Shown: positions 1 through 46,619, counted from the whole stretch's first letter. The stretch is 60,758 bases of DNA, filler included, from Dimargaris cristalligena (GCA_003614675.1; 12 parts of 12 records of this genome joined end to end with filler, not necessarily neighbours in it); one strand, 5' to 3'. The notes: generated from the sequence alone by a model not told the origin. Made by a program: numbers and translations.

Positions 1-141
1 GAAAGAATGGGTTAAAAGGGAAGGGAAAAAAACTGGATATACCAGACAAAAAAGCCGCCTCATACCTTGTATATAAATATAATAATCAAATAGTAATAAT
101 TCATACCTGTGGCAATCAAGGGGACACTCCACCTTGCCACA
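1..141 (-). mobile_element. Terminus of LTR-like element family B, inserted into the gag of the contig-1 retrotransposon (truncated by contig start)
   Basis: Positions 1-141 match the reverse complement of about 18847-18980 (gaaagaatgggttaaa...cttgccaca). The similarity stops exactly at GCCACA (141). Confidence 0.75.
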
Positions 142-1058
142 CCACCAGTACCACCCAACATGCTGAATCGACCACCCAGTACACTGAGATTACTGCCCAA
201 CAGGCACAAGCTACTGTAGGACAGGCACCCCATCCACCTAATCCTTCAACCATTTTAGCTACCCCAAGCTCCCTAGTTTACAAGCTTAAGCCTCAGGATA
301 TTATCCCTTACTCTGGACATCAGCAGGAGAGTTTTCAGGCCTGGAAAACAATGGCCGAGATTGCAACTGATGGCCGCTGTACATCTGAGTTAGAGCAAGT
401 TCAACACTGTGCCCTGTTTCTTCGAGGAAATACCATGAAGTGGTATGCCCAGACCATTCAGACCCATCAGCACTTTCAGTCATGGGATTCCTTTTGTTCT
501 GCTTTATCGAAGGCTTTTCATGACCCTGACACTACTGCATGTCTCCATCAATAGCTTAACAATATGTCTTTCAATCGTAACATTATTCAGTTCACCGACA
601 GGTTCATAGAGATTACTACTCAAATTAACGACTTGGCTCCTGCAGAAGGCATCTTTTGTTATCTGAGTAAACTACTGACCACTGTGGCTACTATTGTTTG
701 ATGTGAAGGTCCCGAGACCCTTCAGGAGGCTGCCCATAGTGCTCAGAGTGTGTATGCCAGTATGCACCCTAATACTTCTACCGTTCATCCGTATACTGCA
801 CCAATGGACCCCCAAAATAGTCTGACACCCATGGAGTTAGATTCCTTCACACCTCTGACACCCTAAGAGTGCAATCACCTGAGACGAGAGAAAGGATGTT
901 TTTATTGTCACAAGACTGGCCATATGTGTTCCAACTATCCCCAGTTGATAGGTCAAGCAAATCGTCAAGCTAGACCTAACCCTCCACTGAATAGACCATC
1001 GGAAAATGCCAGTACCTTGGAAGTCATCTCAGGCTCCTCTGATGTAACTCCTCTCTAA
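142..1058 (+). pseudogene. gag (retrotransposon capsid-like region plus CCHC zinc knuckle), decayed
   Basis: Same frame as the ORF at 351, reading ALFLRGNTMKWY...SWDSFCSALSKAF. PMELD motif at about 828. Knuckle CFYCHKTGHMCSNY at 897-938, with the last Cys changed tgt>tat. The frame ends at TAA 1056-1058. Confidence 0.8.
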
Positions 1059-1147
1059 TTTCTTCCATAACTATTCCCAATATTAGCAGCTCTTCAATTC
1101 CTACATTGCACCCTCTACATCTACAATATACTAAAAATGATCCTTTG

Positions 1148-1525
1148 CTTCCTGACTTGAGATGTACTTATAAACGAGCTACTGGTTTTGATATTCCTTG
1201 TGTAAGAAACTAAGACTTATTGCCTGGGACAACTTCTGTTATATCCTCAGGGATTTGTATTGAACCTCCTGATGGACATTTTATTCAGCTCCATTTATGA
1301 TCCAGCTCTGCTAAACAAGGTCTCATATTACAGGCTGGAATTATTGATTCTGACTACTGGGGTATTATTCAATTTATTATTTATAATTCCAGTCCTAGTG
1401 TATTTTCCATTTGTAAAGGGGATTATATTGTACAAGGTATTCTTAATTAGTATTATCTTGTTTCCCCCATTATTTCTAACACACTGTCTACAACTTTACG
1501 CCAAAATCAAGGGTTCAGCTCTAGT
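1148..1525 (+). pseudogene. dUTPase domain (trimeric dUTPase family) at the start of retrotransposon pol
   Basis: The pol frame reads LPDLRCTYKRATGFDIPC...ISSGICIEPPDGHFIQLHL*SSSAKQGLILQAGIIDSDYWGIIQFIIYN...KGDYIVQGIL...LRQNQGFSSS. All five dUTPase motifs are present in order (AGxDL, RSS, AGxIDxDYRG, GDRIAQ, RxxxGFGSS). Stops at 1211, 1298 and 1448. Confidence 0.9.
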
Positions 1526-1561
1526 ACCATGGCTCTACATGCCAGTTATTCTTGTCCCCTT

Positions 1562-4500
1562 CTACTTTTAACTGGCAGTATTAATACTACAGTAGTAACA
1601 GCCTTATTCAATCCTAGTGCCACTAACAATTTCATTTCTCATTAAATAGCACATCAAGCCCAATTATTACTAACTCCTTTAAGTCAGCCTCAAGAAGTAT
1701 GCTTAGGAGATTCTACCACTTTATTAATTACCCATACTACTACTTTTCATCTTACATTAGGAACATTTTATCAATCTTTCACAGCTTGTGTGTTAAACAA
1801 AGCTCCATATGGTATTCTTTTAGGCCAACCATAGATTCTGGAAAATACCCCCCAGCCACAATGGCATAAGTATTCTTTATTTCTTCCTAAGTCCAATACC
1901 TATTTAGAAGGATATCCTAGTTTTACTTTAAGATCCCCACCTAATAATACTACTTTATCTGTTGTTGAGGCCTCTGATATTTTAAATGACTTAAAAACTC
2001 ATGAAGGTTTCCTTATATTAGTACAACCAGTAATAGAGGAAGCCCCTTCAATTCCTAGTGTGTATCAATCCACTCTTGCCCCATTTTGATCCACTATTTT
2101 AGGCCCATTACCTAGTGGACTTCCTCCAGCTAGAACCATTGACCATCACGTAGATACTGGAGATGCAACCCCCATTTATCGCCATCCCTACAAATTTCCT
2201 CATTCTGACCTCCAGGAACTACATACCCAGTTGGATGACTACTTAGCTAAAGGATTGATTCAACCAGGAGCTTCTCCTTGGGGTGCTCCCATCATCTTTG
2301 TCCCTAAAAAAGATGGATTATGCCGAATGTGCATTGATTATCAGGCTCTAAATTCAAAAACGGTAAAAAATCGATATCCTCTACTCCATATTGATGAAAC
2401 CTTTACTGGTTTGGCTGGTGCTCACATATTATCTAAAATTGATTTAAAATCAGGATATCATCAAATTTGTATTCATCTACCTGATATACCTAAAACTGCT
2501 TTTAATACTAGGTATGGCCAATTTGAATTCCTTGTATTACCCTTTGGATTAACCAATGCCCCCGCTACTTTTCAAACACTTATGAATGGAGTACTTCACC
2601 CCTTTCTTGATAAGTTTGCTATGGTTTACCTTGATGATATTCTTATTTACAGTCCAGATGAAAGTACACATCAGCAATATTTACGGCAAGTTTTAACCCT
2701 TCTGGAATAGCATCATCTCTATGCTAATCTTGCTAAATGTGTCTTTGGCCAAACTTCTTTAGAATACTTAGGCCATATCATTTCTACTGCTGGTATATCT
2801 GTAGATCCCCGTAAAGTTCAGGCTATGCAAACTTTTCCTGTTCCCGCCACTGTTAAAACTTTACAATCTTTTTTAGGACTCACCAATTATTATTGTAAAT
2901 TCATTGCTAATTATTCTTTTATTGTAGCACCACTTACCAGTGCACTTCATAACAAACTAAAAGAACTCCTTTGGATACCTTAGTGTCAATCAGCTTTTGA
3001 ATCACTATGCCATCAATTAAGCAGTACCCCTCTATTAGTTTACCCTGATTATACCTTACCTTTTCAAGTATATACAGATGCCTCTAAGGTTGCTTTGGGT
3101 GCTGTTCTAATGCAGGATTAAGGCCAGGGATTACAACCTATTGCCTATGAATCTAAAAAATTATCTGATCCTGAATCTCATTATACTCCTCATGAGTTAG
3201 AATTATATGCTATTATTCATACTTTAAAAATTTAGTGTCACTACTTATATAACCATCCTTTTACTGTTCACACTGATCATAGAGGTCTTCAATTTCTTTC
3301 TACCACACCTAAGATTCCTATTTGCCTACATCATTGGCTTGAACTTCTCCTGGATTTCGATCCTGATATTAAGTATCTACCAGGGGCTAAGCAAGTTGTT
3401 GCAGATGCACTATCCCAATGTCACAAAACCCCAGCTCTTAATCAACATATATCTATAGCTGCTACCTTGGCTTAATTACCCACTGATTGGCCACAGTACA
3501 TGACACAGCTCTTATGGCAGGAACCATTACCACCAGATACCTCCGTTACCACTTGGGAACATTTGGATTGGGAAATATCCCACTTCACATTAGATCCTGT
3601 ATCAGGCTCCCTATGTTGACTCATCAATGGAAAACCAGTACCCTATATCAAACCCATTGCTCGTAACCATTGGATTCGATGGTTTCATGATAACTATGGA
3701 CATGAAGGGTACCAACGCACCCATTATCAATTACAAATACAAGTTTAGTGGCCACAGCTTCTTAGTTCAGTTCACCAATTTGTTTGTGCTTGTCCTCGTT
3801 GTCAAATTCATTGTCGAGCATATCCTCTTACCACTGTTGAGCCTACACCCCTGGACCCTGTAGCCCAACCTTTGGACCAATGGGCTCTTGATTTTGTAGG
3901 ACCACTTATTTCATCAGTGAAGGGTAATAGATATATTATTACAGCTATTGACCAAGCTAATGGATTCCCTGTTTGCAAAGCTGTTTCTGAAGCTACTGCA
4001 GAAGTTGCTAAATCTTTTCTAGGTGATGATATTATATCTATTTTTGGATTACCTTGAGAAATACTTACTGATCGAGGTACCCAGTTTATGAGTAATACTT
4101 TTGAATCCTTTTTGCAACACCATAATATCCACCATCTAACTACTTCCACTTATGATCCTCAGACTAATGGCTGAGTAGAATGATTTCATGCAGAACTCAA
4201 AGGAGCTATCACATATCAAAATACAGGAGCATGTCAAAATTGGGATACTTTTTTACCTATGGTACTATTAGTTATTCGGACTTGCTATTCTCAGGTAACA
4301 CAAAGTACACCATATTATTTGGTATTTGGTCATTACCCTTGGATACCTGGTGACCGAATCTTACTATTGTTACCGGAGTCAGATATTAACACACTGCAAC
4401 ATCATGCTCAACAATGTCTACCTAGTGTTCAAGAACATCATAAACAGGTATTCTCAATTCACCAGCTCACACAGGCTCATACTCGATAATGATTTTGGGA

Positions 4501-4795
4501 TAAACAACTACGATCTTGTCAATTCAAAGTCAATGATGCCATTTTATTATGAGATCCCACAGCTAGGTCCTTACAATCTCATTGGTTTGGACCTTTTCAT
4601 ATTCACCAGGTTCTACAACATAACACATATTTATTAATGTCCCCTAACATGACTATCAGTCCTGTTCCTATCTATGCCTCCCGATTAAAACCAGCTGTAG
4701 TATCAGATGCTAATTATCATGCTTGGCACTTACCTCCACAGTATATACGCACCCTTGGGGAGGATGGTGTTGTGGTAGGACCTGAGACTACTTAG
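1562..4795 (+). pseudogene. pol: aspartic protease, reverse transcriptase, RNase H, DDE integrase (decayed)
   Basis: Protease ALFNPSATNNFI at 1601 (from ALFDxGA). RT motifs [39 protein letters not shown] and [10 protein letters not shown]. RNase H VYTDASKVALGAVL. Integrase HDNYGH...CPRC, WALDFVGP, TDRGTQF, PQTNG*VE* and WFGPF. No chromodomain seen. Confidence 0.95.
4757..4767 (+). promoter_or_regulatory. Polypurine tract (plus-strand primer)
   Basis: GGGGAGGATGG lies immediately before the LTR start TGTTGTGG. Confidence 0.75.
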
Positions 4796-5001
4796 TCAAT
4801 CATAGTATTCCCTTTTTTAATTACATTCTATTTTTATATCCTTTTATCAGCAAAGTCATGATTTATTATTTTATAGCCTTGCAATATCATAGCAAGCGAG
4901 AGATACATCAAATACCACTCACATTTATATTTGATATCATCATTAGCTAGATATATTTGTAAACTCCTCATTATTAATCAATTTAAGCAGTAATACCACG
5001 T
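4768..5001 (+). repeat. 3' LTR (family A), truncated by contig end
   Basis: Starts TGTTGTGGTAGG. A second copy at 10201-10392 (minus strand) begins at the same base. Confidence 0.85.
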
Positions 5002-5101
5002 NNNNNNNNNNNNNNNNNNNNNNNNNNNNNNNNNNNNNNNNNNNNTTAATTAATTAANNNNNNNNNNNNNNNNNNNNNNNNNNNNNNNNNNNNNNNNNNN
5101 N
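5002..5101. other. Artificial contig spacer (44N-TTAATTAATTAA-44N); 11 identical spacers in the window
   Basis: The same spacer occurs at 10101, 15192, 20281, 25366, 30441, 35515, 40582, 45637, 50684 and 55722. It contains stops in all six frames. Confidence 0.99.
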
Positions 5102-5190
5102 GGATGAAAATTCCAATTGATGTAGCAGTACTATATTTTTTTCAAACAGAAGATAAAAAGCGGCTATCAGCATTATATAAATTAACTTAC

Positions 5191-5688
5191 TGTGTCCGTG
5201 ACTTCCAGCCGAATGCCCAGCGACCGCAGGTAGTTTTGCAAAGCGACCGGCAGGGGGCGGAAGGAGCGACCGGTACCAACCACCAAGATTTCGGGCTTGG
5301 GGGTAACCACCTCCAAAATCTTCCAAATATCCTTATTGGCCTCCGTCAATTCATAGGCGCCACTAGGACCCGGTTGGATTTTCCACTCCAACACGGTGCT
5401 GCCCACGATAAACGTCGGTCCATTGACCTGGACCCCATTGGTGAATATGAAGCCCTGGGGGGTGAAGGCCTGCACGCGCATGGTGGGCTCGGCTCCCATT
5501 TGGTCAAAGATGTTGGTCATGGTGGCCCCACCCGCACTCGGACCGTTACGGCGCGTAGCGGATGTTGTGAACAGGCGGGTGATACCGGTTGGGAAGGTGA
5601 TGTGGGCGGGGGGGGCCCGCAGCCGGTAAACCGGTGCCGAACGGGCAAGGCCCAGCCGTGCAAGAGAGGAGGTGATCGACATATTCAT
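5191..5688 (-). CDS. NDUFAF3: Mitochondrial complex I assembly factor NDUFAF3 / Mth938-like, exon 1 (3' part missing)
   Basis: Arg/Ser-rich presequence, then GFIFTNGVQVNGP...LEVVTPKPEILVVGTG...LRSLGIRLEVTDT. The exon ends at a GTAAGT donor (5190-5185). Confidence 0.85.
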
Positions 5689-6630
5689 TTGGCCAGCAGT
5701 GGGGTTTGTTAAAAGGGAAAGGGAACGTAGCTAACTAATCGCACTACCCTGTGTCGCTGTAAAACTCCGGTTGATAGTTACAGAATGTGTTTAGAAATGC
5801 TAATGACAAATGGGAAGTGTGCAGAGACCTCTCATTCACCCTAATGTGGCCTGAATCTGAGAGCTATGTGGCCTTCCTCCCCCCAGCCACTACGGCACTG
5901 AGTTTATTGACAATGAAGTCAAAGTGGGTGGTGAGTTGGCTATTTCTATAGTCTCTTCTCTCCCTCTAGCAAAGATATGGCCAGTACGTATTACTAAAGT
6001 CATATCACGTGGTTCCGCTTACGAGGCCCAAGGTAGACGATACTAATGGAAGCTCTGAGGTGTGTGCTCACGGCAGGGCCCAATACGTATTCCTAGTGTG
6101 ATTGGAGCTCCAGATATAAGTATGCTGATATTAGTAGTCAATATACCAGGATTTAATGGCATACCTAGATGGTTCTGGAACAAGCAGTAGAGATGTTGAA
6201 GTATTTATATTAGTCAATGGGGTAACTTTGGTCATTGCCAAGTAAACCTATCCTAATGTTGCTATTGCCGTAGCTCCTCCAGTCCAGTAAGTGCGGAGCC
6301 TCAATTGGCCATAGAGCAGATCGATAGGCCTGCCCAAGTTACAGGGTTGCTGCGGTCATACTGGGTGGAGGAGGGCTTCACCATCTAATGGTAGAACTGG
6401 GAAGAAGGTCACTTTCCCCTTCCTTAATATCAACGCGCCCTCACCCTGCTTACTATATGCCTCAACCACACCAGCGGTACTTGGACAACGTAGCAGTATT
6501 AGTCTCTACTTGCCTCCAACCTTCCCTCCTTTCCCCCTTAGCCTCTTCCCCATCCGCCATTCAGTTCCGTAGTATTCCCCGTTATTGCATTCTTTCTCGC
6601 CTTTACTTATTTACTACCCTTTAGTCCCAC

Positions 6631-8458
6631 ATGTCGCCCATCAAAGGTACATTCCCCTCTATCACAGCCTACCCTTCGCCTTACAACCCATATTCTCTGA
6701 CGTGTACCACTCTCCCCACCTTCCCATGCTTAGCCAGTGAACCCACAGTCACCGCCTTCTAACTGCATCCCCTCTATTCTCCCCATTACACTGGCACCTC
6801 TTTATTACGCCACAGTCAATGTCAAATGGAGCGGACAGAAGTTCGACAATATCGAACTTGACCCCCAAGAACCCGCCCTCACCTTCAAAACCCAGCTGTT
6901 TAGCCTAACCGGGGTCCAACCCGAGCGGCAGAAGATCTTCGTCAAAGGTGGCATGCTCAAAGATGACACCGACCTCGCCTCTCTCCATCTGACCGACGGA
7001 CACACCTTCATGATGATGGGTACTGCCGGGGAATTGCCCAAAGTTCCCGAGAAGAAAGTCATGTTCGTCGAAGACATGTCCGAAAAACAGCTGCAAACCG
7101 CCTATAGCATTCCCAGCGGCCTCCAGAATTTGGGCAACACCTGCTACCTTAATGCCACGCTACAGTGTATGCGCGTTATTCCGGAACTCCGCCAGAGTTT
7201 GGCTCAGTTTACCGGGGGGATCAACCAGGGTAGCCCGGCCGCTAATTTAACCGCTGCTCTACGTGACCTGTACAAGGAGCTGGATCGGAGTTCCGAGGGC
7301 TACCCGCCTCTGGTCTTTCTGCAACTCTTCTTCGCCCTCTTCCCCCAGTTTGGGGAACGGGATCGGCATAATGCCCTCCGTCAGCACGATGCCGAAGAAT
7401 GCTGGACCCAGCTGTTCACCGCTATGAGGGAACAGCTCGGCCAAACCACCTCGTCCTCTAGTTCTACGCCTACCCCGACCTTGGAGAAGCTTACCATGGG
7501 TAAGATGGAAGTCACCATCCAGTGCGATGACAACCCCGAGGAACCCCCCCAAACCATGACCGAGTCCTTCGCCAAACTGAGTTGCCACATCAGCAAAGAT
7601 ACCAACTTCCTGCCCAGTGGCATCGCCGCCGCCCTTACCGAAAAAATCCAAAAGCGGTCCCCGTCGCTGGACCGTGACGCTACCTACACCCGCCGGTGCC
7701 AGATTACCCGGCTACCGGCCTACTTGACCGTCAATTTTGTCCGGTTCTTCTGGAAGGCCAGCGAGCAGGTTAATTCCAAGATCCTCCGCAAAGTGACCTT
7801 CCCCACCACCTTTGACGCCACCTCGTTTTGCCACCCGGATCTGGTGGCTAGAATGCGGCCCGTGCGCGAAGCTATTCGTGAGGCCGAGGAGAAGACCGCT
7901 TTAGAAAAGGTAAGCATATCGGGTTGATCTTTATTGGTGACTCGGTTGATTTTGCTTCTTCCCTCCCCCCTCCGTATTCTGCTCCAGTTCATTCCCAACA
8001 TTTGAGCGTCTACCTTGTATGATCCATGTAGAGACTAATGCCTTAGTATTCCCCGTATATTTTTATCTTGTTTTCCTATTCACCAGAAACTGAAGAAGCA
8101 GACCTCCGGGCAGTCTGATGCTATGCAAGTCGATGGTGCCGATGGTCAGACCGGTTCCACCGGTACTCTGCCCGAACCTAGTCCCAAGTTCGAATTGGAC
8201 TCGGCTTTCAAACAGGACCCTGGTTGCAACCCGAGTGGCCAGTACGATCTCTGCGCCGTCTTAACCCACATTGGCCGTTCCTCGGATGAAGGTCATTACG
8301 TTGCTTGGATTCGTAAGGATAATTCGGACGAGTGGTACAAGTACGACGACGACCGAGTATCCATCGTTAAGGAGGCCGAGATCATGAGGCTTAGCGGCGG
8401 CGGTGACTGGCATACGGCCTATATCTGCCTGTACCGCGCCAAAGATCTACCTGCCTAG
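6631..8458 (+). CDS. UBP6: Proteasome-associated deubiquitinase Ubp6/USP14; exons 6631-6646, 6816-7909, 8087-8458 (493 aa)
   Basis: N-terminal UBL (VNVKWSG...QPERQKI...MMMGT), Cys box GLQNLGNTCYLNATLQC, QHDAEE, and His box GHYVAW...DDD...GGGDWHTAY. The GT-AG introns keep the frame. Confidence 0.95.
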
Positions 8459-9196
8459 GGATAGGTAAATGGTACCAGAGTAGGAATTTAAGATAATGGT
8501 AGCACTGTTCAGAGGATTTAATTTCTCCCTCCTCTCGCTTAAAAAAACCTACCTTATTTGACATACTGTATTTTCACTTGGTGGAACTTTATTTCCTCGT
8601 AGTTGTATTTTGGTATAGGGCCCTTCATTTCCCGATGCAATGGTCTTCATCCCCGCTCTAATAACGCGGATGCCTGTCTCGATATGGAATTCTCTTGCGG
8701 TGTCGCGTTCAGTGCCATTATTTGACCGTTACTTCGATCAATTAGCCAACTGACCGACGGACCGTCCTGTATGCTGTTTATTCATTTGATTCCATGTACC
8801 CATAACCGCCATACTTGGTTTTTACAATTTTTATACAATATAAAGTGAAATTATTGAGACGGAGGTCTTTACTTTAACCGAAGTTCCTAATAGGATTGGT
8901 GATTGGTAGAGGTACCATATATGAAAAGTGTTAGAAATAACGTGATCTTTCGTGATTCTCTTCTAGCTCCTATGAGTGGTATTTTATTCACCCTTTATAA
9001 CTGCAACCCCTTCATTCTTATGGGCGCATCCTCTATTCAATAAAACAACTCAACTGGAGTTGTTGTTTCTCTTTGCGGCTTTCTTCCTTATTCATTACTA
9101 TTTCTACTAGTGATTATATCCTTATACAATAAAGCTTGCGGTTATCACTCTTTAAATATTCTAATAAAAGGTTTAATGTAACTATATAATGATTTG

Positions 9197-9250
9197 GATG
9201 AAAATTCCAATTGATGTAGCAGTACTATTTTTTTATCAAAACAGAAGATA
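9197..9250 (+). repeat. Short dispersed repeat; second copy at about 5102-5154 inside the NDUFAF3 intron
   Basis: ggatgaaaattccaattgatgtagcagtactat...acagaagata occurs twice in contig 2. Confidence 0.7.
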
Positions 9251-9391
9251 TAGGAGTAGTTCAATAAGGCTATATAACGAAAAATCCATTTGATGAGGCA
9301 AATACTACAGGTTGAAAATAAACATCCCACCGATTTTCCCATACACATATCAGTTAAACCCTTATACAGCCAAGCTGAACTTCACCCATAT
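9248..9391 (-). mobile_element. 144-bp MITE (family E), ATAT-flanked, with about 30-bp imperfect TIRs
   Basis: ATAT-aggagtagttca...tgaacttcaccc-ATAT. Homologous to the copies at 33332, 44155, 47971 and 55822. Confidence 0.8.
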
Positions 9392-9489
9392 GCACATCGA
9401 TGGGATTTTTTTTTAAAATGAGGGAAAAATGATCACTGACCCTGTGATCAATCAAAAGACCTATAATAAATCTATGAATAATGACTCGG

Positions 9490-10100
9490 AAAAGCCAAAA
9501 AAAAAACTGTACTATATAAATTGATATCTGGTAACTGGACTAGTGGCAAATTAGCTTTCTTTAACTACTTTCCACTATTTTTCAATACTTTTAAGTTATT
9601 TTCTACTACTTTTTAAAGGATTATTCCTATATTAAATTAAATTACAATAAACCTAAACTTTCTTTTATATATAATCTTGCAGCTAGTGTATAGAAACTGT
9701 GTTTTAATAATTAAACTACCCTTCTAATACTTTAAAATTTCTTACTAATCCCTACCCCCTTTCCTTTGGTGATTAATTACCTAACAAATAATTCTAAATG
9801 GCAAATATACACAATCTACACTGGCTGCATTATAAAGTAAGTAAACCCTTTTCACAGCAGAAAACTGGCCAATGAGGGGCTATACTTAAGAAATTTTTTG
9901 AGCTGTCCAGGAATCTGGCAGGGGATGATGACCTTTTTGATCTCTTTTCATCTATTTTAATAAAAACCAGCTCTGGGATGGCCCTATTTACTAGGTTAGT
10001 TATAGTATCCCCTTTTTTTAGGATTGTTTTATCTGTGGTAGACCACTTCCAATCTGCCAATTACCTTGATAAGGTGGTTTGGTCTTCCCTCCTTGCTCCC
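9490..10100 (+). mobile_element. Probable decayed repeat or TE fragment with a remnant reading frame from ATG 9798
   Basis: No CpG found over about 600 bp. The frame from 9798 is open to the contig end except for one TGA at 9873. No recognisable motif. Confidence 0.3.
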
Positions 10101-10200
10101 NNNNNNNNNNNNNNNNNNNNNNNNNNNNNNNNNNNNNNNNNNNNTTAATTAATTAANNNNNNNNNNNNNNNNNNNNNNNNNNNNNNNNNNNNNNNNNNNN

Positions 10201-10392
10201 CGAATATATCTGGCTAATGATGATATCAAATATAAATGCGAGTGATATTTGATGTGTTTCTCACTTGCTATGATATTGCAAGGTTATAAAATAATAAATC
10301 GAGACTTCACTGATAAAAGGATATAGTAATGAGAATTGATTAATAAAGAAATACTGCGGTTTAACTAAGTAGTCTCAGGTCCTACCACAACA
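10201..10392 (-). repeat. LTR family A, 5' end (5' LTR or solo LTR), truncated by contig start
   Basis: The reverse complement matches 4768 to about 4960. There is no PPT upstream, so this is an insertion junction. Confidence 0.85.
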
Positions 10393-11332
10393 AAAATATT
10401 ATGGATTATTTAGTATGTATAGGTTAAACTTTAAATAGGGGGTTTGGAAGGGATGATTTTAGTGCACATACCTGCCTCATTCCAATATGATGGTGCATAG
10501 CCCAGACAGACCCTACATTTGAGTGTACCCGTAGGGCCGCCCCCATTGTACCTACTAATTTCTAAAACTGCTAATTGGGTATATTTTTGAATTTTGCCCA
10601 TACCGTACATGTAGTAACAAATCTGGGTAGAATCATAAATGAAATGTAACAAGTCAAAGAGCACAGGCCAACAACGCATCTCTTTATCATCCGTTTTATA
10701 TTTTTACGCACCTAAATCCGTCCATCTGAAATAGGGTAAGCATAAACACGGGCCTAGTCGGAGAGTGAGATGAGGGGGGGGGAGGCACGGGTTTTTACCC
10801 TAATCAATCGACGAATACATTGTTACACGTGAAATATTCCAATAGTTCGTAGCGAATCCATCGTCGACTACACTTCACCCTCTCCCTCTATATCGGGATG
10901 AGTTGATTGGTAGATTAAACAGGATCAGGAAACATATGAAAGAGACGCCGATTGGCAATCACTGAACGGGTTGATGGGCATGGCTGGGTCAAAGAGCACC
11001 TCCTCCATATTAGCCAAATAAAATTTACTAAATAGCAATATGCCCCATTGGTATTAGAACCAAGTCACCACGCTTCAATTTGACTACTGCGTCTGACCCA
11101 ATGAAAATCCACCCGCTTTCCTTTCAAGCCACCTGTTCCTATCCTACAATAGTATACATTTTCTACGCAAGTGTACAAGGGGATTAGACCGTAGTAGTCT
11201 AAGGATTCCCACTATCTTTTGAGTATAATGGCAAGTTCTCCGGGCTCCAACTGTCTATCCATCCCCTCCCCCTAAAATAAAGAAAAGCCCTTAAATAGGC
11301 AGTCTTCATTAACAAATACCCATGGCAGCACC

Positions 11333-13042
11333 TTAAAATGCCGGAGGGTTGAATTCATCCGCTAAATTGAACCCAGTGAGTTCCATTCTAATCAATTCCA
11401 TCGTTTCGGCGCGGCTGAAATCCGACTTGATCGATCCAAACAGCATATGCGGTTTGGTCGAGTTCAAGAACGCTTGAAGGTACAAGCAGTCCAAAGTGTG
11501 CCCGTCGTGTTCGTAAGGAAATATGGGATATACCGTACTCGTTTGGGGATCGATACCCAGGATGAACATAAACTCCCGTTTACGCATCGCTTCACGGACC
11601 GCTTGGATGGTTTCGAGACGGTCCGTCCGGGACTGAAGGCCCTGGGAGAGGGGCATGGGCGAAGCTCCTGCCAGGTTGGTACTCTCTACTCCACTATGCT
11701 GCTGGATGTAGCGATTGAGAAATTTATCAAACGTACGCCAAAAGGTATCCTTGTCAAACAAAGTTGACACTGACTGACTCTCGGGTAGTAAATTATTATT
11801 TGAGTACGCTGGTAGTAGGTCATTAGTACCGAATGGCGTGAGTCGAAGGATATCGTCTACCGCGTATTGCCGACATTCTTGGGCCAGTTCAACTCCTCCG
11901 GGAAGGGTGGTGAACAACTCTGTATCCATTAAGGAACCAGCGGCCGCTTCCGTCGCCCCTTCATCCAAAGGCCAGTTGGCGATGGCTTCATTGGGCAGAG
12001 CGTAGTCCAGGACATCCGCGGTTTCACTGGGCCAGTAGTACATCGGGGGAGACTCGGCTGACGGTTGCTGGACCTCGGGGTAGCTATGCTCAGCGAGGCT
12101 GCTGGAAGCCGGTGGTGGAGGGCTCGCGGGACTATCGCTTCGGGATTTCATGTTACTTCTTCTACGGCGACGACCGTCGGTAGTAGGTACCAAGTAGGGC
12201 CGCACGTGTTCTTGCCGGGCGGTGTTTGACCGCGACCGGGCCGTTGCGGAGCTTCCGGGGTGGTGGTGTTGTGAGTCCGTAATGGTGTCAACTGATTTTC
12301 CGAACAAGAAGGAATGACCATTCATCCAGTCCAACGAGCCGTGATCATCGATTGCCGAAGACGAGGACAGCGGCATAGCATTATTGCCTAAGGGCCCCCC
12401 ATCAAGTAGATCAGATGGGGTATCGGCAACGGCCAGTTCGTTGGGTGGGGGCGGATAAAGATGGTCGTACACGCCCACTTGACTACGGGCGGCTTCATTC
12501 GCGGAGAAATCAGCCAAATGCCATGCAACAGAAGAAGACGGCGGCGAGACCAATCCCCCATCTTCCTCGAGTAAACCACGACTACCATCACCTTGTGGGT
12601 CACCATTGCCCTCGGGAGTATAGTAAAATGGACTCGTCAATAGTAGGCTAGGTCCGTTCAAGCCAGACTCGCGAAGAGGCTCACTGGCCCAGGCAGGTGG
12701 TGGTGAACTATTGGGTTCCGCGAGCGACTCCCTAAACTGTAGTCCGGTCGACTCTACACCGAAGTTCCATGGATTATCGTTATTCTGGTTATCCGTTGAA
12801 CTGACCGACGACGGGATGTCGCCCCCCCAGGACCAGTCGTCTTCCGCCTGGTCATTGTCGGTCGGGATACGGTCGTTGTTGGCGCTGGTGCGAACCAGGT
12901 AGTTGGGCGCCACTGCTGGGGTCCGCAACTGGTCGATTGCTCCAAGGACGACACTACCACTATTGGGACCCCACTGACTTCCCATAAATAATACGGCTGC
13001 ATAGCCAAAACACCAGACCCGTTGGTACTTTAGTGAGGTCAT
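11333..13042 (-). CDS. Hypothetical 569-aa protein, probably secreted; long low-complexity N-terminal region and an ordered-looking C-terminal domain
   Basis: Long intact CpG-rich ORF with a hydrophobic N-terminus (VWCFGYAAVLFMG). AT-rich TATA-like tract upstream at about 13221-13238. No family recognised. Confidence 0.7.
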   Translation of the reverse strand: MTSLKYQRVWCFGYAAVLFMGSQWGPNSGSVVLGAIDQLRTPAVAPNYLVRTSANNDRIPTDNDQAEDDWSWGGDIPSSVSSTDNQNNDNPWNFGVESTGLQFRESLAEPNSSPPPAWASEPLRESGLNGPSLLLTSPFYYTPEGNGDPQGDGSRGLLEEDGGLVSPPSSSVAWHLADFSANEAARSQVGVYDHLYPPPPNELAVADTPSDLLDGGPLGNNAMPLSSSSAIDDHGSLDWMNGHSFLFGKSVDTITDSQHHHPGSSATARSRSNTARQEHVRPYLVPTTDGRRRRRSNMKSRSDSPASPPPPASSSLAEHSYPEVQQPSAESPPMYYWPSETADVLDYALPNEAIANWPLDEGATEAAAGSLMDTELFTTLPGGVELAQECRQYAVDDILRLTPFGTNDLLPAYSNNNLLPESQSVSTLFDKDTFWRTFDKFLNRYIQQHSGVESTNLAGASPMPLSQGLQSRTDRLETIQAVREAMRKREFMFILGIDPQTSTVYPIFPYEHDGHTLDCLYLQAFLNSTKPHMLFGSIKSDFSRAETMELIRMELTGFNLADEFNPPAF

Positions 13043-14114
13043 AACTATAGCTCTATCGAATGCCCAAATAAAAAATGGAATCGGGAAAATCTAACAAACT
13101 GCAGTATAAGTCTTAAAAATTTGGGTGTTATCCAGAAAAGAACACCCCAAGTTAAAAAATATAAAAAATAATGAGTTCAATAATACAGTTGGGGCGGGCC
13201 TAAAGCGACCGCTGGGTCCATTATATATATATATATATCGGTTATTAGTAAGCCACCAACAGGCTCGTTCTTCTCGTATCCAACTTGAATGCTCTGTATT
13301 ACTCGACGTACGAACGGATTCTACCGATTTGACGGACCGAAAGGCGTGCCTATCCCGGCCAATCGTAGTTGTTGCACGGTCACGGTGTGGTATCACTTCC
13401 AGTGTAAGGTGGCCAAGCATATCACCTGCAAGACAGCCTAAAATAGGAGGTATTGTAGGACCGTTTCGCCCCGCCTCGACCACTCCTAGCCTGTTCGACT
13501 TAAACAGTATGCCTTTATGGTCAACCCTTGCCCCCTCCTCTTTATATTTTTTTGCCCAACTCGGCCTCCATTACCCTGCCATTATCATGGCGGGGTAGGG
13601 TTTTACCAGCGGCCCAATAACAAGCGGAATGTGATATCTGGCTGTAGGCAAGAGGGCCCAACAAGCCGGTACTTTACTTACCTACACTCACATACCCCCC
13701 TTTGACCCTAGAGGTCAAGACATCTCCCCCCCAACCGTTTAATCTCCCCCCAAGCAAGGTCAGGTGAGCCACTTGCCTCTCCCGTTTCATACGCGGATAT
13801 TATTCCCCAAGGAAGTGTTCTCAAGCAAGATGTGTAACAGGCATCCACCAACCATAAACTGACGCGGCTCCATGCGCTTGCTATGGTAGCCCTATATCAA
13901 TTAGCAGTCTTGGCGTTTATCACGAACAGGGGAACTATGGTTTAGGCGATTATTTTTTCGGCTGTACACAGCTGTTGCAAATGACCCAGCTTGGTCTGTA
14001 GAACCATGCGGGCTTTTAACGGCTTCCACCCTAATTATGGGGCCTGTATTGATACATAGTCTACTGATCGGATCGTATCGGGTAATCCAATGAAGTTGTG
14101 GTGTAAAAGGTATT

Positions 14115-14118
<4 letters not shown>

Positions 14119-14144
<26 letters not shown>
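14119..14144. repeat. (TA)13 microsatellite
   Basis: Read directly from the sequence. Confidence 0.9.
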
Positions 14145-14145
<1 letters not shown>

Positions 14146-14613
14146 GGAAATATAATTTTTAATAGGCGAAATGGATAAATGACAAGTGGCTATAATAATT
14201 CGAATGTAAAACGAAGCGATAATAGAATGCTAAGGAAGTTTTGAACCAGTAAATAGCTATTATACCTAACGTTGGCAGGGAGTGTGGGGGGGAGTGATAT
14301 CGAAGAAGGAAGAAGTGCGGAAGGGTTACACATTATTATGGAATGGATGAGAGGTGGAGTAAAGCGCATATGAAGACCTCTTTGTATAGCAATAAGGGGG
14401 AGAGAAGCTAGAAGTAAGGGATGTTATGTTATGTAGGAAGAATCTGTGGATGGGCATCCCCTAGTATAATTATATAGAAAAAAACCTTGAATAGGGAGAG
14501 AGGGGTATTGTAAAGCGGGTGGTATAATTGAATGGTTCAGCAAGAGTGGAAAAGGGGAGGGGGAGGCGCAAATATGTGTTTGGGTGTGTTTGATGGACTC
14601 GTTACAAACAGAT

Positions 14614-15191
14614 TTAGCGAGTTCCATCCCGAACTTCCATAATACCACTATCCCGAGCGGCGGATGCAGTGTCCTGTCGCCTATCTTCGGGCACAGTGGT
14701 AGTCTCCTCCGTATCCGAATCCGAATTGTAGTCCAGCGGGGACAGACTCTTTCTAAACCGGTCCAGATGCCGCATGAAGGACGTAAACCCTGTGGAGTGC
14801 GAACTGCCGCCGCTGTGTTTGGTCGCACTGTGACCCCCGCCGGGCGATACATCGGTCGCCTCGTCCTCGGGAAAAATAAGCGGTGCCGTCCGGTCCCCTT
14901 GGGTAAGGGAAGCGCGTGACGATTGGGCCAGGCAGTGGTGAGTCGGGGAGGACGGCGGTTCACTACTCAGCTCAATAGCCGGAATGGTATTATGGGAAGG
15001 GTTAGTGGAGGAGGCCGTCGGGCCCGCCGAAAGGGAATGGCTAGGGGCATTGAAAAAGCGCATGGGATGCGGTGTATCATCCATATCGGAGATATCCGAC
15101 TCGGAAGCTAGACCATGGTGGGAATCAATGGACATGTTGGCCGACCGCAGGTGGATGCTACTATTCGGGGAGGACATGAGTTCGTTATCGT
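14614..15191 (-). CDS. C-terminal low-complexity (Ser/Asp/His-rich) part of an unidentified protein, 5' truncated
   Basis: GC- and CpG-rich frame open from the contig end to the stop at 14614, followed by AT-rich UTR-like sequence. Confidence 0.6.
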
Positions 15192-15291
15192 NNNNNNNNN
15201 NNNNNNNNNNNNNNNNNNNNNNNNNNNNNNNNNNNTTAATTAATTAANNNNNNNNNNNNNNNNNNNNNNNNNNNNNNNNNNNNNNNNNNNN

Positions 15292-15414
15292 AGTATAAAT
15301 ACTCCCCCTTGCTACCACCTCTTGGAACAGCAAGTCTATCATCACCCTTCCCCTTTTATTATCTTTCTTTCAAATAAAGTTCAGTTTTCAAGGATTTGAG
15401 TTCAGTTCTTTACA
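15292..15414 (+). repeat. LTR family C, 3' portion
   Basis: Contains TATAAATA and AATAAA and ends ...TTCTTTACA. Further copies at 20138, 30386 and 55661. Confidence 0.8.
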
Positions 15415-18400
15415 TCAGGAAACAAGTAAAGGTGGTAGAGAGGCCCAAAGAGTTAGCAGCAGTTACTATTAATAAACTAGTATTCCATACTACACTTAAT
15501 ACCACTGATAATACACATACCCATTGGAGGATATTGGACAGAGCCACCTTAGGAAGAAAGCCAATCAAGGCCACCACAGACCAGGTAGCTGCCACCAGTA
15601 TTGTCACCCTCCAGGCTGCAAACCGCCTAGACCTCAGTGTTAATCCATCTCAAAAACCTCACTTCCAATCCTTTGGAGTGACCCACTAACTTTCTACAGT
15701 GGGTATGGCTAACAGCTTATTCATAATAAGCAAGTCAACCCGAAAACACTGGATACAATTTACTATTCTAGATGTTAAGGCTGATATTGATGCCTTAGTG
15801 GGTCAACATGACTTGGACAAGCTTGGGTTAGACCTCATCCAACTATTACCAATCCCCAGCAAAACCACTAGTAACCAGGACTTAGCTGTGTCACCAACTG
15901 GTGTTTCCCAGAAAGAAACCCAGTGGCTTCAGGGAATCCCAGCTGAAACCTTTGTCAAAATGGACCCAAAAACTAATAAGGAATTTCAAGATGCTGACAC
16001 CCAATACCCCATTCCTAGCTAAGCAAATGTAGAGGCACACCTACAGGTGCAATGGGAAGGAGAATCCTATTGGGCCCAAATTCTGGACAAGCTAATGTCA
16101 GGGAAACTAGCACTTTGGGAATATCCTCCAAGCTGCCCATCCCCTTGTTTACTCAAACCACTTGAGCCAACCATGTGAGAGGAAGCCCAGCTCCTATATG
16201 TCCCTCAGGCTCCACAAAGTAGAGCAGACCAGGAATTTATGGCAGGATACATCAAGACCCGACTCCAATATGGTGCTGATGAACCTGGGTAGGTGCATGC
16301 TAATCTACCAGTCTATTCATTACCTAAACCAAACACAGACGTTCACTGAGTTATTCTTGATGACATTCTGGGTAGTACTATTAATATGTATTCCCTTGGT
16401 ATGCATTTACCAAAGCTCCACAAGATTCAATCCTTTGTGTCTGATGCCTAAATAATCACTAGCATTGACTTAGCCTCATACTTTACACAAATCTGAATTA
16501 CCCCCCAGGTCCAGGATTATTGGACATTTAATAGTGGTATTCATGGTAAATTTTGGGCCACCAGACTTGTCCAAGGCAACAGTCAGAGCCCAGCCATTGC
16601 ACACACGTTCCTTGAGTACATACTTAATAGCATTATTGGGTTATGGGGCTGCCTCCTATGTTACATAGATAATATCTATTTAAAAAGTACAACAGGAGAT
16701 ATAAAAGAACACATTGAGGACATTGGCCAGTTAGTACAAACCCTAGCGGATTGGAGGCTCACTATCAATATGCCAAAGAGTAAATTTGCTGGTACCAAAG
16801 ATATTGACATCCTCAGCTACCACTGGTCAAAGGGAGGAAGCTGGACAATTACTGATCACCAAACCCAGGAACTCCAAGACTTACCAATGCTTCAAACAGT
16901 TAAAGACATCTAATGTCTCACTAGGGGTGTAAATGCCATCTCAGCACATCTACCCTGGTCTGCCGCCCTCTTAGCACCATTTTATGCCCTCACTGGAAAG
17001 GTCTGTTTAACCAAAGCTGACCACACTCAACTAGAGCCCCACTGGCTGGACCTCCAATGTGCCTTAACCAACCCAGCTAATCTGTATGAACCCAGTGGGG
17101 ATGAACCACTTACCCTATAAGTAGATGCAGCAGAAGCAGGAGTCAGGGCAGTCCTATTAGCACACAAGTTAGGAGAAGCTAAAGGCAGTAGAGTAGTAGC
17201 CTACTATAGCAAGGCCAAAGACACCCATGATTCCGGGAGGCCTGGGGATTAGTGAGAGCTGTCTGCCACTTTTACACTTACCTGGATGGCGCAGCCAACC
17301 TGCAGATCAAAGTGGATGCCACCACAGCCCTGGGATTATTCAACCACAAAGACCTCTGTCAGGTGGATGAACTGGGAGGCTTTAGAATGGAGCTAGCATC
17401 CATGGGAATCCATGCCCACATGGTACACCACTGCCCAGGTGACACCCATCTAACAGCAGACTGGTTATCAAGAGCAAGACAATGCCAGTGACCTAGGAAA
17501 ATAAAAGGGGAGCCAGGCCTGACAATTACAGCCCTCCAAACACCTCTCATCACCATCAACAATAGCACTAGTCTCAACCACAATCCAGATACTGATGACA
17601 ACATAAGTACTGGGGAATTCCTTAAATCAGATAATGAGGGAGACACTATTGACCTATCCTTCTCCTCCAATGAGGAAGACAAACTAGACCACCAACCTGA
17701 TAGCCAGCCTCCAGGGGAATCATTCCTAAGAGCAGCAATACCATTGGCATGGACCTAGTCCCTTACCCCAGAAGACTAACAAGTGGATGAACAGCTAAAC
17801 AAATGGATACAATTATGTCAGGGCTGAGATCTCAAAGTGGGGCATGATGATAGATTCTTTACTGAAGTCTGTGATATGAGTTTCAAGGATGGTCTATTGG
17901 GGTCAATTAAAAGATGAAGACTGGCAGGAGCAATGGGGATCTGGGCTCCCTTAGCCCCCACACTCAATATGAGAGAAGCCATTAAAACTTGGCACCATGA
18001 TCTCTGCCATCCAGGTCAAGAATGTCTCCTGGCCTATGCCTGAACAAAGCTATTACACTCACACCTATATAACACAATCAATGCTTATACCCGGGCCTGC
18101 CATACCTGCCAGATTAATGCAATCCCAACTACCCAAAATACACCTCAATCCACAACCTACAACCAGCAATAGCCCGGGAAACACCTCTACATAGACTTGG
18201 GATATGTAGGCTCTATTAGAGATGATGAGGAATCACAATTCTGAATTATTGCAGATGCCAATAGCCACTTCTACCAGGCTATACCAATCCTACAAGCAAC
18301 TGGGAAGGAAATTACAGAAGTAATTGATAATAACTGGGTTAGGATATTTAGTAAACCCACTCACCTCACAAGTGATAATGGACCACAATTTGTCTCCAAT

Positions 18401-19900
18401 GCATTCCAAGAGTACTTACAAGGACGGGGAATTATCCACATTCAGTCATCAAAGTATTGGCCCATAGCAAAACTGGCAGAATGGTACATAGGGCTATTGA
18501 AGCAATCTCTGAGAAAGTGCTTAATGGAAAACAGCACTCAAGGCAGCTGGATATAATACTTACAACAGATAACAATGGCACACATCCTACTGCCAGATCC
18601 ACACACTGGGCTGACACCTTGGGCCATAATACAAGGGGCTCAAGTTATCACTGAAGAGACCCACTGATGGCTGCATCCAGACAACAAGAACAACCCGGCA
18701 GGCATAGCAGAGTGGGTGATGGCCCAAGCAGAAGAATGTAGGGCCAGAGTCTAAAAGTGAGCCATGGAGAAAATAAATGAGCATATTACAAGGAGAAGGT
18801 ATGAAGAGGGCATCCTTGTAACTGTCAAAATCCTCCCTAAACCTGCTGTGGCAAGATGTACTGTCCCCCTATAAGCCACACTAATTATATTACTAATATT
18901 ATTATTATACAGGGTATGAAGTGGCTTTTTTTCTGGTATAACCAGTTTTTTTCCCCTCCCCTTTAACCCATTCTTTCCATACAACTTTTTCCTTCAATTT
19001 TATTTATATTTCTATTAGTGAATATATGCTATCCCTACAAATGGATATGTATATTCATGCTTGATTATTAGTGGTTATTTGATTTTATTCCTATCCTCTA
19101 CTATATTAGTTCTACTTTATGAATCCACCTTTTCTTTTTTATTAGTTATACAAGTTCACTGTATGCTTACTGGCTTTAAAAATTCTGTACCTTATACTAA
19201 GGATAGCTTGGTATTCTTGGCTATAGAGCCAAAAGTCTTGGCATTATTTAGATAAGATATGCACCATTGATGCACTCAATTGGGCTATACATGCAAATAA
19301 TTAGCACACTCATGCAAGTGATTGGGGATGTATTAGTGTACATATTATTCTATAAATAGGAAACTTTTTCCCCTCTTTTTTTTATGTATGTCATTTGCTT
19401 TATATCAATGTTTGGATACCAATTTTCTTCTATATTTTACTATACTATAAACCACCATTACTATTACTTTGGATTTCTTAGATTTTATATACTTTTAAAA
19501 GTTGTAGATGCCAAGGAAATGGTCCTCTTGAGCTTATAAACTAGTATGACATTTACTTAGTTTAAACTGGTCTTTTATTAAAAGTATTATATATTGAATT
19601 TTTATCTGAGTGATAAACCAGTTTACCTAGAGAAGCTACCCTGCCCTTTTGATATATTTTTGTTGTTCTATTTGTGGCTTAACACTACCACACTGTGACA
19701 GCACTGCCATCTAAAAGCCATCCCCCTGGCTCAGCGCACCTTGGGATCTACAGGGTACAACTAAGCCTGCATAATAGTATTTAATCTGTCACTATACCAA
19801 TGCACTATAGTAGCTACAGGTTGGGCACTCCAAATTAAGCCCCCCATGATAGTGCTCTGCTGTGGTCAGCTGGCCAGAGGCCGCGTAAGCCCCAGTACAC
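15415..19900 (+). mobile_element. Decayed, divergent LTR retrotransposon pol (PR-RT-RH-IN, Ty3/gypsy order), interrupted at 18847-19692; 3' boundary approximate
   Basis: Protease IKATTDQVAATSIV...DALVG. RT SIDLASYFTQI, RLVQGNSQSPA (16566) and CYIDNIYL (16662). RNase H VDAAEAGV...VAYYSK...ADWLSR. Integrase HHDLCH...CHTC, YIDL and SDNGPQF. Many stops and one frameshift near 17235. Confidence 0.9.
18847..19692 (+). mobile_element. 846-bp family B insertion (solo-LTR-like, TG...CA) nested in the integrase 3' region
   Basis: Ends are TGTGGCA...TACCACA. Flanks CTGC / CTGT fit a 4-bp TSD with one CpG transition. TATAAATA at about 19351. The host reading frame resumes after the insert. Confidence 0.75.
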
Positions 19901-20137
19901 ATTACCAATCCAAGAAGAAGCCATACTTTGAATGAATTCAAGGTCCCCAGATAATTGACAAGTTATTTTAATGGGAACAGTCCGGGGTTATCAATGTTAT
20001 TTTATTTTTTTATGCTAGCTGATTCTCTTTTCCTTCAGCTTTCCAAATTATACTTCTATATACTTTTCTGTCCATTATTGATGAAGTTATAGGTTGTCAA
20101 AGTCAATGATGATATTAAAGCTATGATAATTGACCAC

Positions 20138-20280
20138 TGTAAAGAACTAAACTCAAATCCTTGAAAACTGAACTTTATTAGAAAGAAAGATGATAAAAAG
20201 GGGAAGGGTGATGATAGACTTACTGTTCCAAGAGGTGGCAGCAAGGGGGAGTATTTATACTTGAAAGAGGAAGCCTAAAT
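20138..20280 (-). repeat. LTR family C, 3' portion
   Basis: Reverse complement of 15292-15414, extending slightly further. Confidence 0.8.
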
Positions 20281-25017: not shown

Positions 25018-25365
25018 TGTCACCCAGGTTAACCACTCTTAGTCCATCAAGAGTCCCAAGGATAGGCTTCTAACAGTAGATGGGGCTCAGGCTTGGCCAA
25101 GTGGGTTTTTAGCATTAGGTGGGGGTGTAGTACTAACTAATAAAGGACAAGTGCAGGTAAATGCAAAAGATGTGCAGCAGGCACACTTACTAGTTAGTAC
25201 AAGGGGAGTGAGCATATATAGAGTTTATTGGGATAAACTATGGGGTAAGAATAAGCTAAAAAAATCTAACTAGTCCCAATGGGGCCCAGTTATATATATG
25301 CAAGGGCCACTCCAGAGAGAGACCCCAGGGGAAGAATACTACTAAGACTAAGGTATGATAAATAG
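25018..25365 (-). repeat. LTR family D, 3' portion (truncated)
   Basis: The plus strand starts TGTCACCCAGGTTAACCACTCTTAGTCC, the reverse complement of the 3' end of 29472-30051. Confidence 0.85.
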
Positions 25366-29471: not shown

Positions 29472-30051
29472 TGTCAGCCCCTGTAATCTGACTTAATCTG
29501 GATGAAGCAATTGTCCATCCCAACTAGGCTATATAGCGCCATATGTAACTTCCTATGGTCACCCCCAGTACTATGGGATCACCCTATTAAATATAGCTGT
29601 CCCCCATCTGGACTCTTGGGTTTACACCACTCACTCTGGTGCTGATCTAATAACTCTTCCAGTTACTACTCGAGTCTTCCAGACCCTCATGACCATCCAG
29701 TCAGCTTATTTAGTATACCCTAGTCCTAGTAGCATTTCCCTCAGGGACCTCCCTCAGGAGCTGTCCCCTATATATATAACTGGGCCCCATTAGGACAAGT
29801 TTAATTCCTTAGCTTATTCTTATCCCCCCTAGTTTATCCTAATAAACTCTATATATACTCACTCCCCTTAGACTAACTAGTAAGTATGCCTACTATATGT
29901 CCCTTACATATACCTGCATGTAGCCTTTATTAATTAGCGCTATGCCCCCCGCCTAATGCTAGGACCCACTTGGCTAAGTCTAAGCCTGCCTACCATTAGA
30001 AGCCTACCCCCAGGACTCTTGACAGACTAAGAGTGGTTAACCCGGGTGACA
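29472..30051 (+). repeat. LTR family D, full-length 580-bp copy
   Basis: TGTCA...TGACA termini, with internal TATATATAA and AATAAA. No clean TSD. Confidence 0.85.
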
Positions 30052-45998: not shown

Positions 45999-46018
45999 CT
46001 TTAAAATAAGTTATTAAT

Positions 46019-46598
46019 TGTTGCCTGAGTTAACCACTCTTAGTCCATCAAGAGCCTCAGGGATAGGCTTCTAATGGTAGGTAGGGCTTAGACTCAGCCA
46101 AGCAGGTGACTAGCATCAGGTATGGAGCATAGTACTAACTAATAAAGGCTTAGGAATTGGGTATGCAAGGGATGTGCAGTGGGTACACTTATTTATTAGT
46201 ATGAAGGGGTGAGTATATATTAAGTTTATTGAGGTAAACTAGGGGGTAAGGATAAGCTAAGGAATTTAACCAGTCCCAATGGAGCCCAGTTATATATACA
46301 TGGGGGACAACCCAGAGGGAGGTCCCAAAGGAGAATACTATTAAGACTAAGGTATACTAAATAGGCTAACTGGACAGGCATGGGGGTCCAGAAGACTTGG
46401 GTGATAACTGGAAGAGTTGTTAGATCAGCACTGGAGTAAGTGGTGAAAACCTAAGTATCTAGAAGGGGGACAGTTATGTTGAATAGGGTGATCCCATAGT
46501 ACTGGGGGTGACTATGGGAAGTTATATATGGTGCTATATGGCCTAGTCAGGATGGGTAATCACTATATCTGGATTAGGTTAGATTAGAAGGGCCAACA
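46019..46598 (-). mobile_element. Solo LTR, family D (580 bp), with a 5-bp TSD
   Basis: TGTTG...CAACA, flanked by TTAAT at 46014-46018 and TTAAT at 46599-46603. Confidence 0.9.
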
Positions 46599-46619
46599 TT
46601 AATAAATTAAAATAAAATA

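Follow-up and report, generated by a model that had tools for sequence, protein, structure and literature searches.

Decay of a Ty3/gypsy-type retrotransposon in the mycoparasite Dimargaris cristalligena by C>T change, strong at CpG and weaker at CpA, is consistent with methylation-type wear of repeats

In canonical repeat-induced point mutation (RIP), as in Neurospora crassa and the Pezizomycotina, repeats receive C>T/G>A changes on both strands and acquire stops without indels; in the partial sources used here, CpA is the preferred site, the changes are almost only transitions, and few near-identical repeats survive. To our knowledge, RIP is regarded as a process of the Dikarya alone. In Zymoseptoria tritici, a Dim2-dependent CA>TA mutation of methylated repeats proceeds without meiosis and aids the inactivation of transposable elements, and the passages drawn on here place more than 98% of its C>T changes at CA, with CG unmutated (Moller et al., 2021; PMC8016269). 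In the Agaricomycotina and Ustilaginomycotina, CpG transitions are over-represented in repeats and have been attributed to spontaneous deamination of 5-methylcytosine (5mC), with no raised rate in other dinucleotides in the part of that study cited here (Horns et al., 2012; PMC3318451). Closer to the present host, a RIP-index signal has been reported from the Entomophthorales (Zoopagomycota), in passages where the authors stress its caveats (eLife 2024; PMC11105155), and early-diverging fungi have been described as nearly lacking 5mC. Here we analyze a decayed long terminal repeat (LTR) retrotransposon of Dimargaris cristalligena, which makes up the first piece (1-5001) of a 60,758-base stretch of DNA (the window) and which a preliminary description had read as the work of a candidate undescribed genome-defence system or of dense non-CG methylation.

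The pol gene of this copy has decayed predominantly through C>T changes, counted on either strand, that struck CpG far more often than CpA. To read the spectrum, pol was compared with 60 protein relatives, taken in order from the 98 that aligned over more than 780 residues among the 120 matches listed, and the 290 columns at least 75% identical among them were treated as conserved. This copy differs at 82 of the 290, with C>T at CpG in 19 cases, CpA in 10, CpT in 2 and CpC in 1, T>C in 5, 21 transversions, and 24 differences needing more than one step; many of the transversions are conservative replacements that may be specific to the lineage. The claimed dominance of transitions is therefore upheld and has a clear polarity, with 32 C>T against 5 T>C, and the per-site loss falls from 19/44 at CpG through 10/82 at CpA to 2/69 at CpT and 1/82 at CpC, with T>C at 5/210. 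Where the codon itself fixes the context, 16 of the 20 conserved CGN arginine codons have been destroyed, CpA was changed at 5 of 31 sites (tryptophan TGG>TAG three times, histidine CAY>TAY twice), CpT at 1 of 16, and CpC at none of 57. These CpA sites were never CpG, and the contrast with CpC (p=0.004) bears out the proposal that C>T strikes CpA as well. Confinement of the excess to CpG, named beforehand as part of what would speak for ordinary ageing, was accordingly not seen: CpA sites were also struck, although CpG dominates by far. Among the 1,265 codons, arginine is now rare (19 CGN and 9 AGR), and glutamine, histidine and cysteine codons are inflated (76 CAR, 65 CAY, 29 TGY).

The stops and the reading frame agree with this spectrum in the places where an ancestral residue can be assigned. 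All 17 stops listed in the preliminary description lie in the frame of position 1001, and four more (1040, 1832, 4550 and 4793) bring the total to 21, against 60 and 110 stops in the other two frames. The stop at 4793 probably terminates pol naturally, and that at 1040 may not be a decay stop, because it falls in the overlap where pol is already open and gag has not yet ended. At the TAG stops 1832, 3233 and 3746, the column is tryptophan in 54, 58 and 52 of the 60 relatives, which identifies TGG>TAG, a G>A after T and hence an opposite-strand C>T at CpA; at the TGA stops 3617, 4181 and 4550, it is arginine in 48, 49 and 38 of the 60, which identifies CGA>TGA, a C>T at CpG. The origin proposed for the stops therefore holds for these six, while the others lie at variable columns and carry no assignment. 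The proposed D>N change in the protease is likewise borne out (D in 54 and the neighboring G in 53 of the 60 relatives), and the C>Y change in the gag zinc knuckle (897-938), where Tyr (TAT, 936-938) occupies the place of the last Cys, is read against what we take to be the motif, CX2CX4HX4C. No net frameshift was found, as had been stated: the dUTPase, RVT_1, RNase H, integrase zinc and integrase core domains share one frame, and the one-frame translation gives single BLASTP alignments over residues 186-1243 (P0006) and 60-1236 (P0105). Contigs from runs of two studies match parts of the copy with 0 differences, including 1418-2117 with its four stops, and the copy is therefore real.

The loss of CpG is restricted to repeats. 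In 1-5001, only 43 CpGs remain where 179 are expected, and CA and TG are in excess (observed/expected [o/e] 1.17 and 1.20) as a conversion of CG into TG and CA would produce. The CpG o/e is 0.24 in this element, 0.08 in TE2, a second and unrelated dead retroelement, and 0.09 in fam2, a non-coding repeat family, compared to 0.88 in a non-ribosomal peptide synthetase (NRPS) gene, 0.89 in an ABC transporter gene and 0.86 in UBP6, which confirms that CpG is scarce in the element and abundant in genes. Low-CpG kilobases coincide with repeats, and genes and other non-repeat stretches are near expectation (0.75-1.05 per kb). By 5' base, the remaining 43 CpGs follow T in 16 cases, C in 15, A in 11 and G in 1; TCG is thus not depleted, and the TpCpG pattern of the Pucciniomycotina is not evident in this count of the remaining sites.

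The RIP indices, read against their customary thresholds, did not single out the element. Its TpA/ApT is 0.88-1.11 and its (CpA+TpG)/(ApC+GpT) 1.15-1.38, with a negative composite in all five 1-kb windows, whereas the fam2 region 46001-48000 lies in the usual RIP range (1.32-1.45 and 0.91-1.07). With a composite above 0 as the criterion, following the passages used from PMC11105155, the non-repeat kilobases 56001-57000 and 52001-53000 (CpG o/e 0.75 and 0.58) are also positive, with TpA/ApT of 1.33-1.42; therefore, a RIP index alone is not specific in this genome.

Sequencing reads gave a second view of the direction of change. The stretch is present in five runs of one organism, four of which, from two studies, were compared at 80% likeness; depths were taken from contigs and are a rough guide only. 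In run X1, the stretch has T/A where reads have C/G at 291 places and the reverse at 180, with 471 transitions and 119 transversions (transition:transversion ratio [Ts:Tv] ~4 between copies). On the plus strand, the 185 places with C>T and the 106 with G>A are in proportion to C and G content (13.7% of C and 12.1% of G), and R>C/stop changes lie intermixed with R>Q/H changes over the length of pol. Among the 40 best-supported differing places, the stretch has T/A against C/G in the deep contigs at 23 (14 CpG, 5 CpA, 2 CpC and 2 CpT), and the protein-inferred changes at 2291, 2468, 3323 and 4673 were confirmed by reads. The contigs of this copy itself have a word depth of ~100-240, while related contigs of 300-730 bases, 10-15% different, reach 2,000-12,000 in four runs and two studies; related sequence at 20-100 times the depth of this copy retains C/G at the CpG sites lost here, which argues against efficient RIP. 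Along the piece, word depth is ~100,000 in the bin 1-167, 2,000-20,000 within the element, and ~22,000 and then 80,000 in the 3' LTR.

Whether CpA is special was asked of three further repeat sets in the window (Table 1). In the six copies of fam2, where 447 of 630 columns show a clear majority, C>T is found at CpA in 21/134 (19 clean), at CpC in 17/307 and at CpT in 11/316, with T>C in 51/1256. Its transitions number 115 (C>T/G>A 64 times, on fewer C/G sites, and T>C/A>G 51 times) and its transversions 46 (Ts:Tv 2.5), and its ancestral CpG pairs now read CA (44), TG (40), TA (28) and CG (11); in composition, CA is low and TA and CC/GG are high. A check of the six copies for a per-copy burst found no hypermutated copy, the changes being evenly spread, and the counts by CpA trinucleotide are too small to read. 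TE2, compared with 47 closer relatives, has lost CpG at 5/6, CpA at 2/41, CpC at 1/35 and CpT at 1/25, with T>C at 1/99, and thus shows no CpA excess (2/41 vs 2/60 for CpC and CpT together). In fam3, four of whose five copies each retain 2-3 CpGs, there is none either (CpA 5/52; CpC 4/47 and CpT 3/45, or 7/92 together). Pooled over the four sets, CpA stands at 36/307 and CpC+CpT at 40/926 (Mantel-Haenszel odds ratio 3.1, p=2.5e-6). The CpA excess is therefore real overall, moderate and uneven, being present in the piece-1 element and fam2 and absent in the smaller TE2 and fam3 sets. Two pairs of LTR fragments offered few differences and no polarity, one with 6 CpG, 4 CpA, 3 CpC, 3 CpT and 4 transversions and the other with mostly transversions.

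Set beside the described systems, the element resembles the basidiomycete decay of Horns et al. (PMC3318451), with CpG transitions in repeats that do not require RIP to be invoked, but differs in that CpA is raised in two of the four repeat sets, against no raised rate in other dinucleotides in the part cited, and in its Zoopagomycota host. It shares C>T at CpA in repeats with Zymoseptoria tritici (PMC8016269), but there CA takes nearly everything, whereas here CpG is dominant and CpA secondary. With canonical RIP it has in common the C>T/G>A change of repeats on both strands and stops without indels; unlike RIP, it combines a CpG loss far above that of CpA with a Ts:Tv of ~2.5-4, abundant intact relatives and a non-Dikarya host. 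The signal of the Entomophthorales (PMC11105155) is likewise a hint of repeat-directed C>T in the Zoopagomycota, but in the passages used it is a composition index only, while here relatives and sister copies were used to infer direction and context, and the element's own index is negative.

Taken together, the decay probably arose as methylated cytosines deaminated in repeats that had been silenced, to which non-CG methylation or second hits would have added a weaker component. Under this reading of the sequence, 1-5001 would be an old copy, now dead, of a Ty3/gypsy-type element with a high copy number, silenced after insertion, probably via cytosine methylation of repeats. Its methylated cytosines would then have deaminated to thymine on both strands, at CpG far above CpA, and at CpA above CpT, CpC and the T>C background; the loss of CpG would have converted arginine CGN codons to stops or to codons for Cys, His or Gln, and the slower loss at CpA, which may reflect either weaker non-CG methylation or second hits at decayed CpG, would have turned Trp TGG into TAG. 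Background substitution would amount to only ~1-2%, and therefore few or no indels would be expected and the frame would survive. The context order, strand symmetry, restriction to repeats and intact abundant relatives all fit 5mC deamination, and the similar relative rates in the older fam2 and the younger element fit a steady, time-proportional process. TE2, which has lost CpG at 5/6 and little besides, agrees with this. As for the enzymes, according to the passages seen, CDCA7F occurs in two Kickxellomycotina, and DNMT1 is found in nearly every species with CDCA7, which by analogy implies DNMT1 in relatives of the host; a review, seen in part, places Dim-2 in early-diverging fungi.

Several observations weigh against this reading: (i) the CpA changes of certain context in pol are all CAH (CAT, CAA), and CAH sites are ones that a maintenance methylase is unable to keep methylated. 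(ii) In fam2, TA makes up 28 of the 112 decayed CpG pairs, somewhat above the plain CpA rate. (iii) The indel frequency of fam2 (17 singletons of 1-2 bases per 51 singleton T>C) predicts ~8-19 indels in pol, where 0 frameshifts were seen; this prediction assumes a background T>C of 1-2.4% of ~2,390 A/T sites, and homopolymer content is similar in fam2 and pol. The shortfall hints at a purely deaminating C>T process that was fast relative to ordinary decay, unless lineage-specific replacements have raised the background estimate.

The preliminary description had proposed a repeat-targeted C>T process that strikes both CpG and CpA outside the Dikarya. In its most far-reaching form, a repeat-directed mutator of Dimargaris cristalligena would act on CpG first and on asymmetric CpA (CAH) second, often convert CpG to TpA and inactivate retrotransposons by stops without indels, through either a RIP-like enzyme or dense de novo non-CG methylation of the DIM-2/RID type. 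We consider this form unlikely. An undescribed defence system has not been established, given that CpG dominates even at the CGN codons and the element's RIP indices are negative, and the claim is weakened further by the two repeat sets without a CpA excess and by the abundant relatives that retain their CpGs. The alternative of dense non-CG methylation in the preliminary description fares better in part: methylation that includes some non-CG sites would be the more economical account.

The nearest rival, an active RIP-type mutator that is triggered by repeats, depends on the DNMT family and deaminates cytosines in duplicated DNA of this Zoopagomycota fungus, at CpG and then at CpA, is in our judgment rather unlikely. 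It would account for the true CpA sites in pol, the pooled CpA odds ratio, the ~20 stops with no frameshift and the frequent CG>TA doubles of fam2, to which the TAA stops at arginine-dominated columns of TE2 may be added, and the CAH contexts would suit it or a non-CG component; the RIP-range indices of fam2 and the caveated Entomophthorales signal also point its way. Against this, CpG and not CpA predominates, the piece-1 element fails the RIP indices, and Ts:Tv is only ~4 between copies and 2.5 in fam2, where indels are many and changes are even over the copies. Moreover, the deep contigs imply many near-identical copies with intact CpGs, TE2 and fam3 lack the CpA excess, and a kingdom-wide 2025 screen, in the part seen, found signatures only in ascomycetes.

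Neutral ageing without methylation, in which CpG and CpA are merely the most mutable background contexts and the frame has survived by chance, is very improbable. The roughly two-fold per-site excess of C>T over T>C in fam2 is what many AT-biased genomes show, and the CpA excess is small and differs from family to family, as such ageing would allow; however, CpG has been lost only in repeats, its rate is ~20-40 times that of T>C, and zero frameshifts were seen where the fam2 ratio predicts 8 or more. An origin during retrotransposition, through errors of the reverse transcriptase or a cytidine deaminase that edits the cDNA, is scarcely credible despite the transition-rich pattern without indels, since editing would leave plus-strand G>A only, whereas C and G have been changed alike on the plus strand (so that cDNA editing is excluded), both kinds of change are interleaved at arginine codons, and fam2, which is neither coding nor a retroelement, shows the same context order.

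The window consists of twelve ~5-kb pieces joined by N44-TTAATTAATTAA-N44 spacers (5002-5101 and ten more), so that the flanks of a spacer are not genomic neighbors; the finding was judged inside piece 1 only, and the other eleven pieces are unlinked samples from the same genome. The host does lie outside the Dikarya, as had been supposed: the long UBP6 exon (6734-7927) shows 100% identity, across 92% of its length, with an NCBI protein of Dimargaris cristalligena, a mycoparasite of the Zoopagomycota (Kickxellomycotina), and the next matches are other Dimargaritales (Tieghemiomyces 61%, Dispira 61%, D. xerosporica 55%). The NRPS and the YCF1-type ABC transporter named earlier are also present. 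The transporter has protein matches of only 45-48%, to Mortierellaceae and a chytrid, and the NRPS is a single open exon (35615-40438, 1,607 residues) with condensation, AMP-binding, carrier and condensation domains, which fits the reported richness of the Dimargaritales in secondary-metabolite genes (PMC10386755, in the part used). An Rfam scan of the stretch returned 0 matches.

By its domain content, with gag followed by protease, reverse transcriptase, RNase H and integrase in that order, the piece-1 element is a Ty3/gypsy-type LTR retrotransposon (Table 1). The gag region is matched by Ty3_capsid at E=6.4e-10 and by Retrotrans_gag at E=2.7e-07. The 3' LTR takes in the final nine codons of pol, and the purine-rich tract before it is likely the polypurine tract. 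The two LTR parts do not overlap each other, and both are repeated in other pieces. The dUTPase domain stands upstream of the protease, and one database relative (P0105) also lists a dUTPase. No second pol copy was found in the stretch by tblastn, and no close protein relative of pol appeared among the matches listed, where the best identities are 37-49%.

Table 1. Features of the piece-1 element and of the comparator repeats, in window coordinates
Feature	Position	Strand	Remarks
3' end of 5' LTR	1..144	+	Piece begins within LTR; 79% match to 18844-18977, other strand
gag	3..1058	+	Frame of position 3; internal stops 552, 699, 864; natural end 1056
pol	995..4795	+	One frame, -1 relative to gag; opens after stop at 992; 19-20 internal stops
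dUTPase domain in pol	1166..1525	+	PF00692, E=2.6e-15; residues 389-508, translation from position 2
Protease active-site triplet, decayed	1610..1618	+	D>N at 1610 (G>A after C), G>S at 1616
Reverse transcriptase	2300..2782	+	RVT_1, E=1.2e-32; residues 767-927
RNase H	2972..3358	+	RT_RNaseH_2, E=1.9e-30; RT_RNaseH, E=9.9e-29
Integrase zinc-binding domain and catalytic core	3662..4159	+	Integrase_H2C2, E=2.5e-09; rve, E=4e-14
Purine-rich tract directly before LTR	4757..4767	+	Read from sequence; repeat match to piece 3 begins exactly at 4768
Start of 3' LTR, begins TG	4768..5001	+	4768-4957 matches 10203-10392, other strand, 87.5%
fam2 reference copy, non-coding repeat family	46007..46616	+	CpG o/e 0.09, TpA o/e 1.31
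fam2 further copies	47327-47915(-), 29469-30053(-), 32391-32964(-), 25028-25365(+), 45737-46013(-)		
TE2, second unrelated dead retroelement	15292..20280	+	CpG o/e 0.08; RT (reverse transcriptase)/RNase H in one frame, integrase in another
fam3, 146-base dispersed repeat	33332-33475, 44155-44298, 9248-9391, 47971-48120, 55822-55881		

Among the comparators, fam2 units are ~590 bases long, occur as direct and inverted copies in 45737-48400 and elsewhere, and have no Pfam match in the six frames of piece 10. TE2 holds 20 stops (TGA 10, TAA 6, TAG 4), and its division between two frames points to one or more frameshifts, or else to a shift that is programmed. The gypsy relatives of the piece-1 element were tried for TE2 and rejected as too distant (22-26%), and dedicated relatives replaced them. 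In these database relatives, columns typical of arginine hold C, H, Q or W instead, a sign that the same CpG decay may have acted on them. A 124-base inverted repeat lies at the ends of piece 4 (15292-15414 and 20138-20261, 95% identical), and pieces 6 and 11 carry parts of it at their ends.

The literature searched, supplements lying outside the search, yielded no description of RIP or repeat methylation in Dimargaris, and the most likely cause of what is seen here, judged from sequence, would be ordinary methylation-type wear, with a secondary CpA signal, in a lineage for which no such description was found. The repeats of this Kickxellomycotina mycoparasite carry a strong, repeat-restricted signature of CpG loss and a weaker CpA component, a signature implying that the transposons of Dimargaris cristalligena have been subject to cytosine methylation or to some related activity that deaminates. 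If the CpA part is enzyme-driven, the origin of RIP-like defence would move below the Dikarya split; if it is not, the element would be a case of ordinary methylation wear, and one that counsels caution before stop-rich, frame-intact elements are called RIP.

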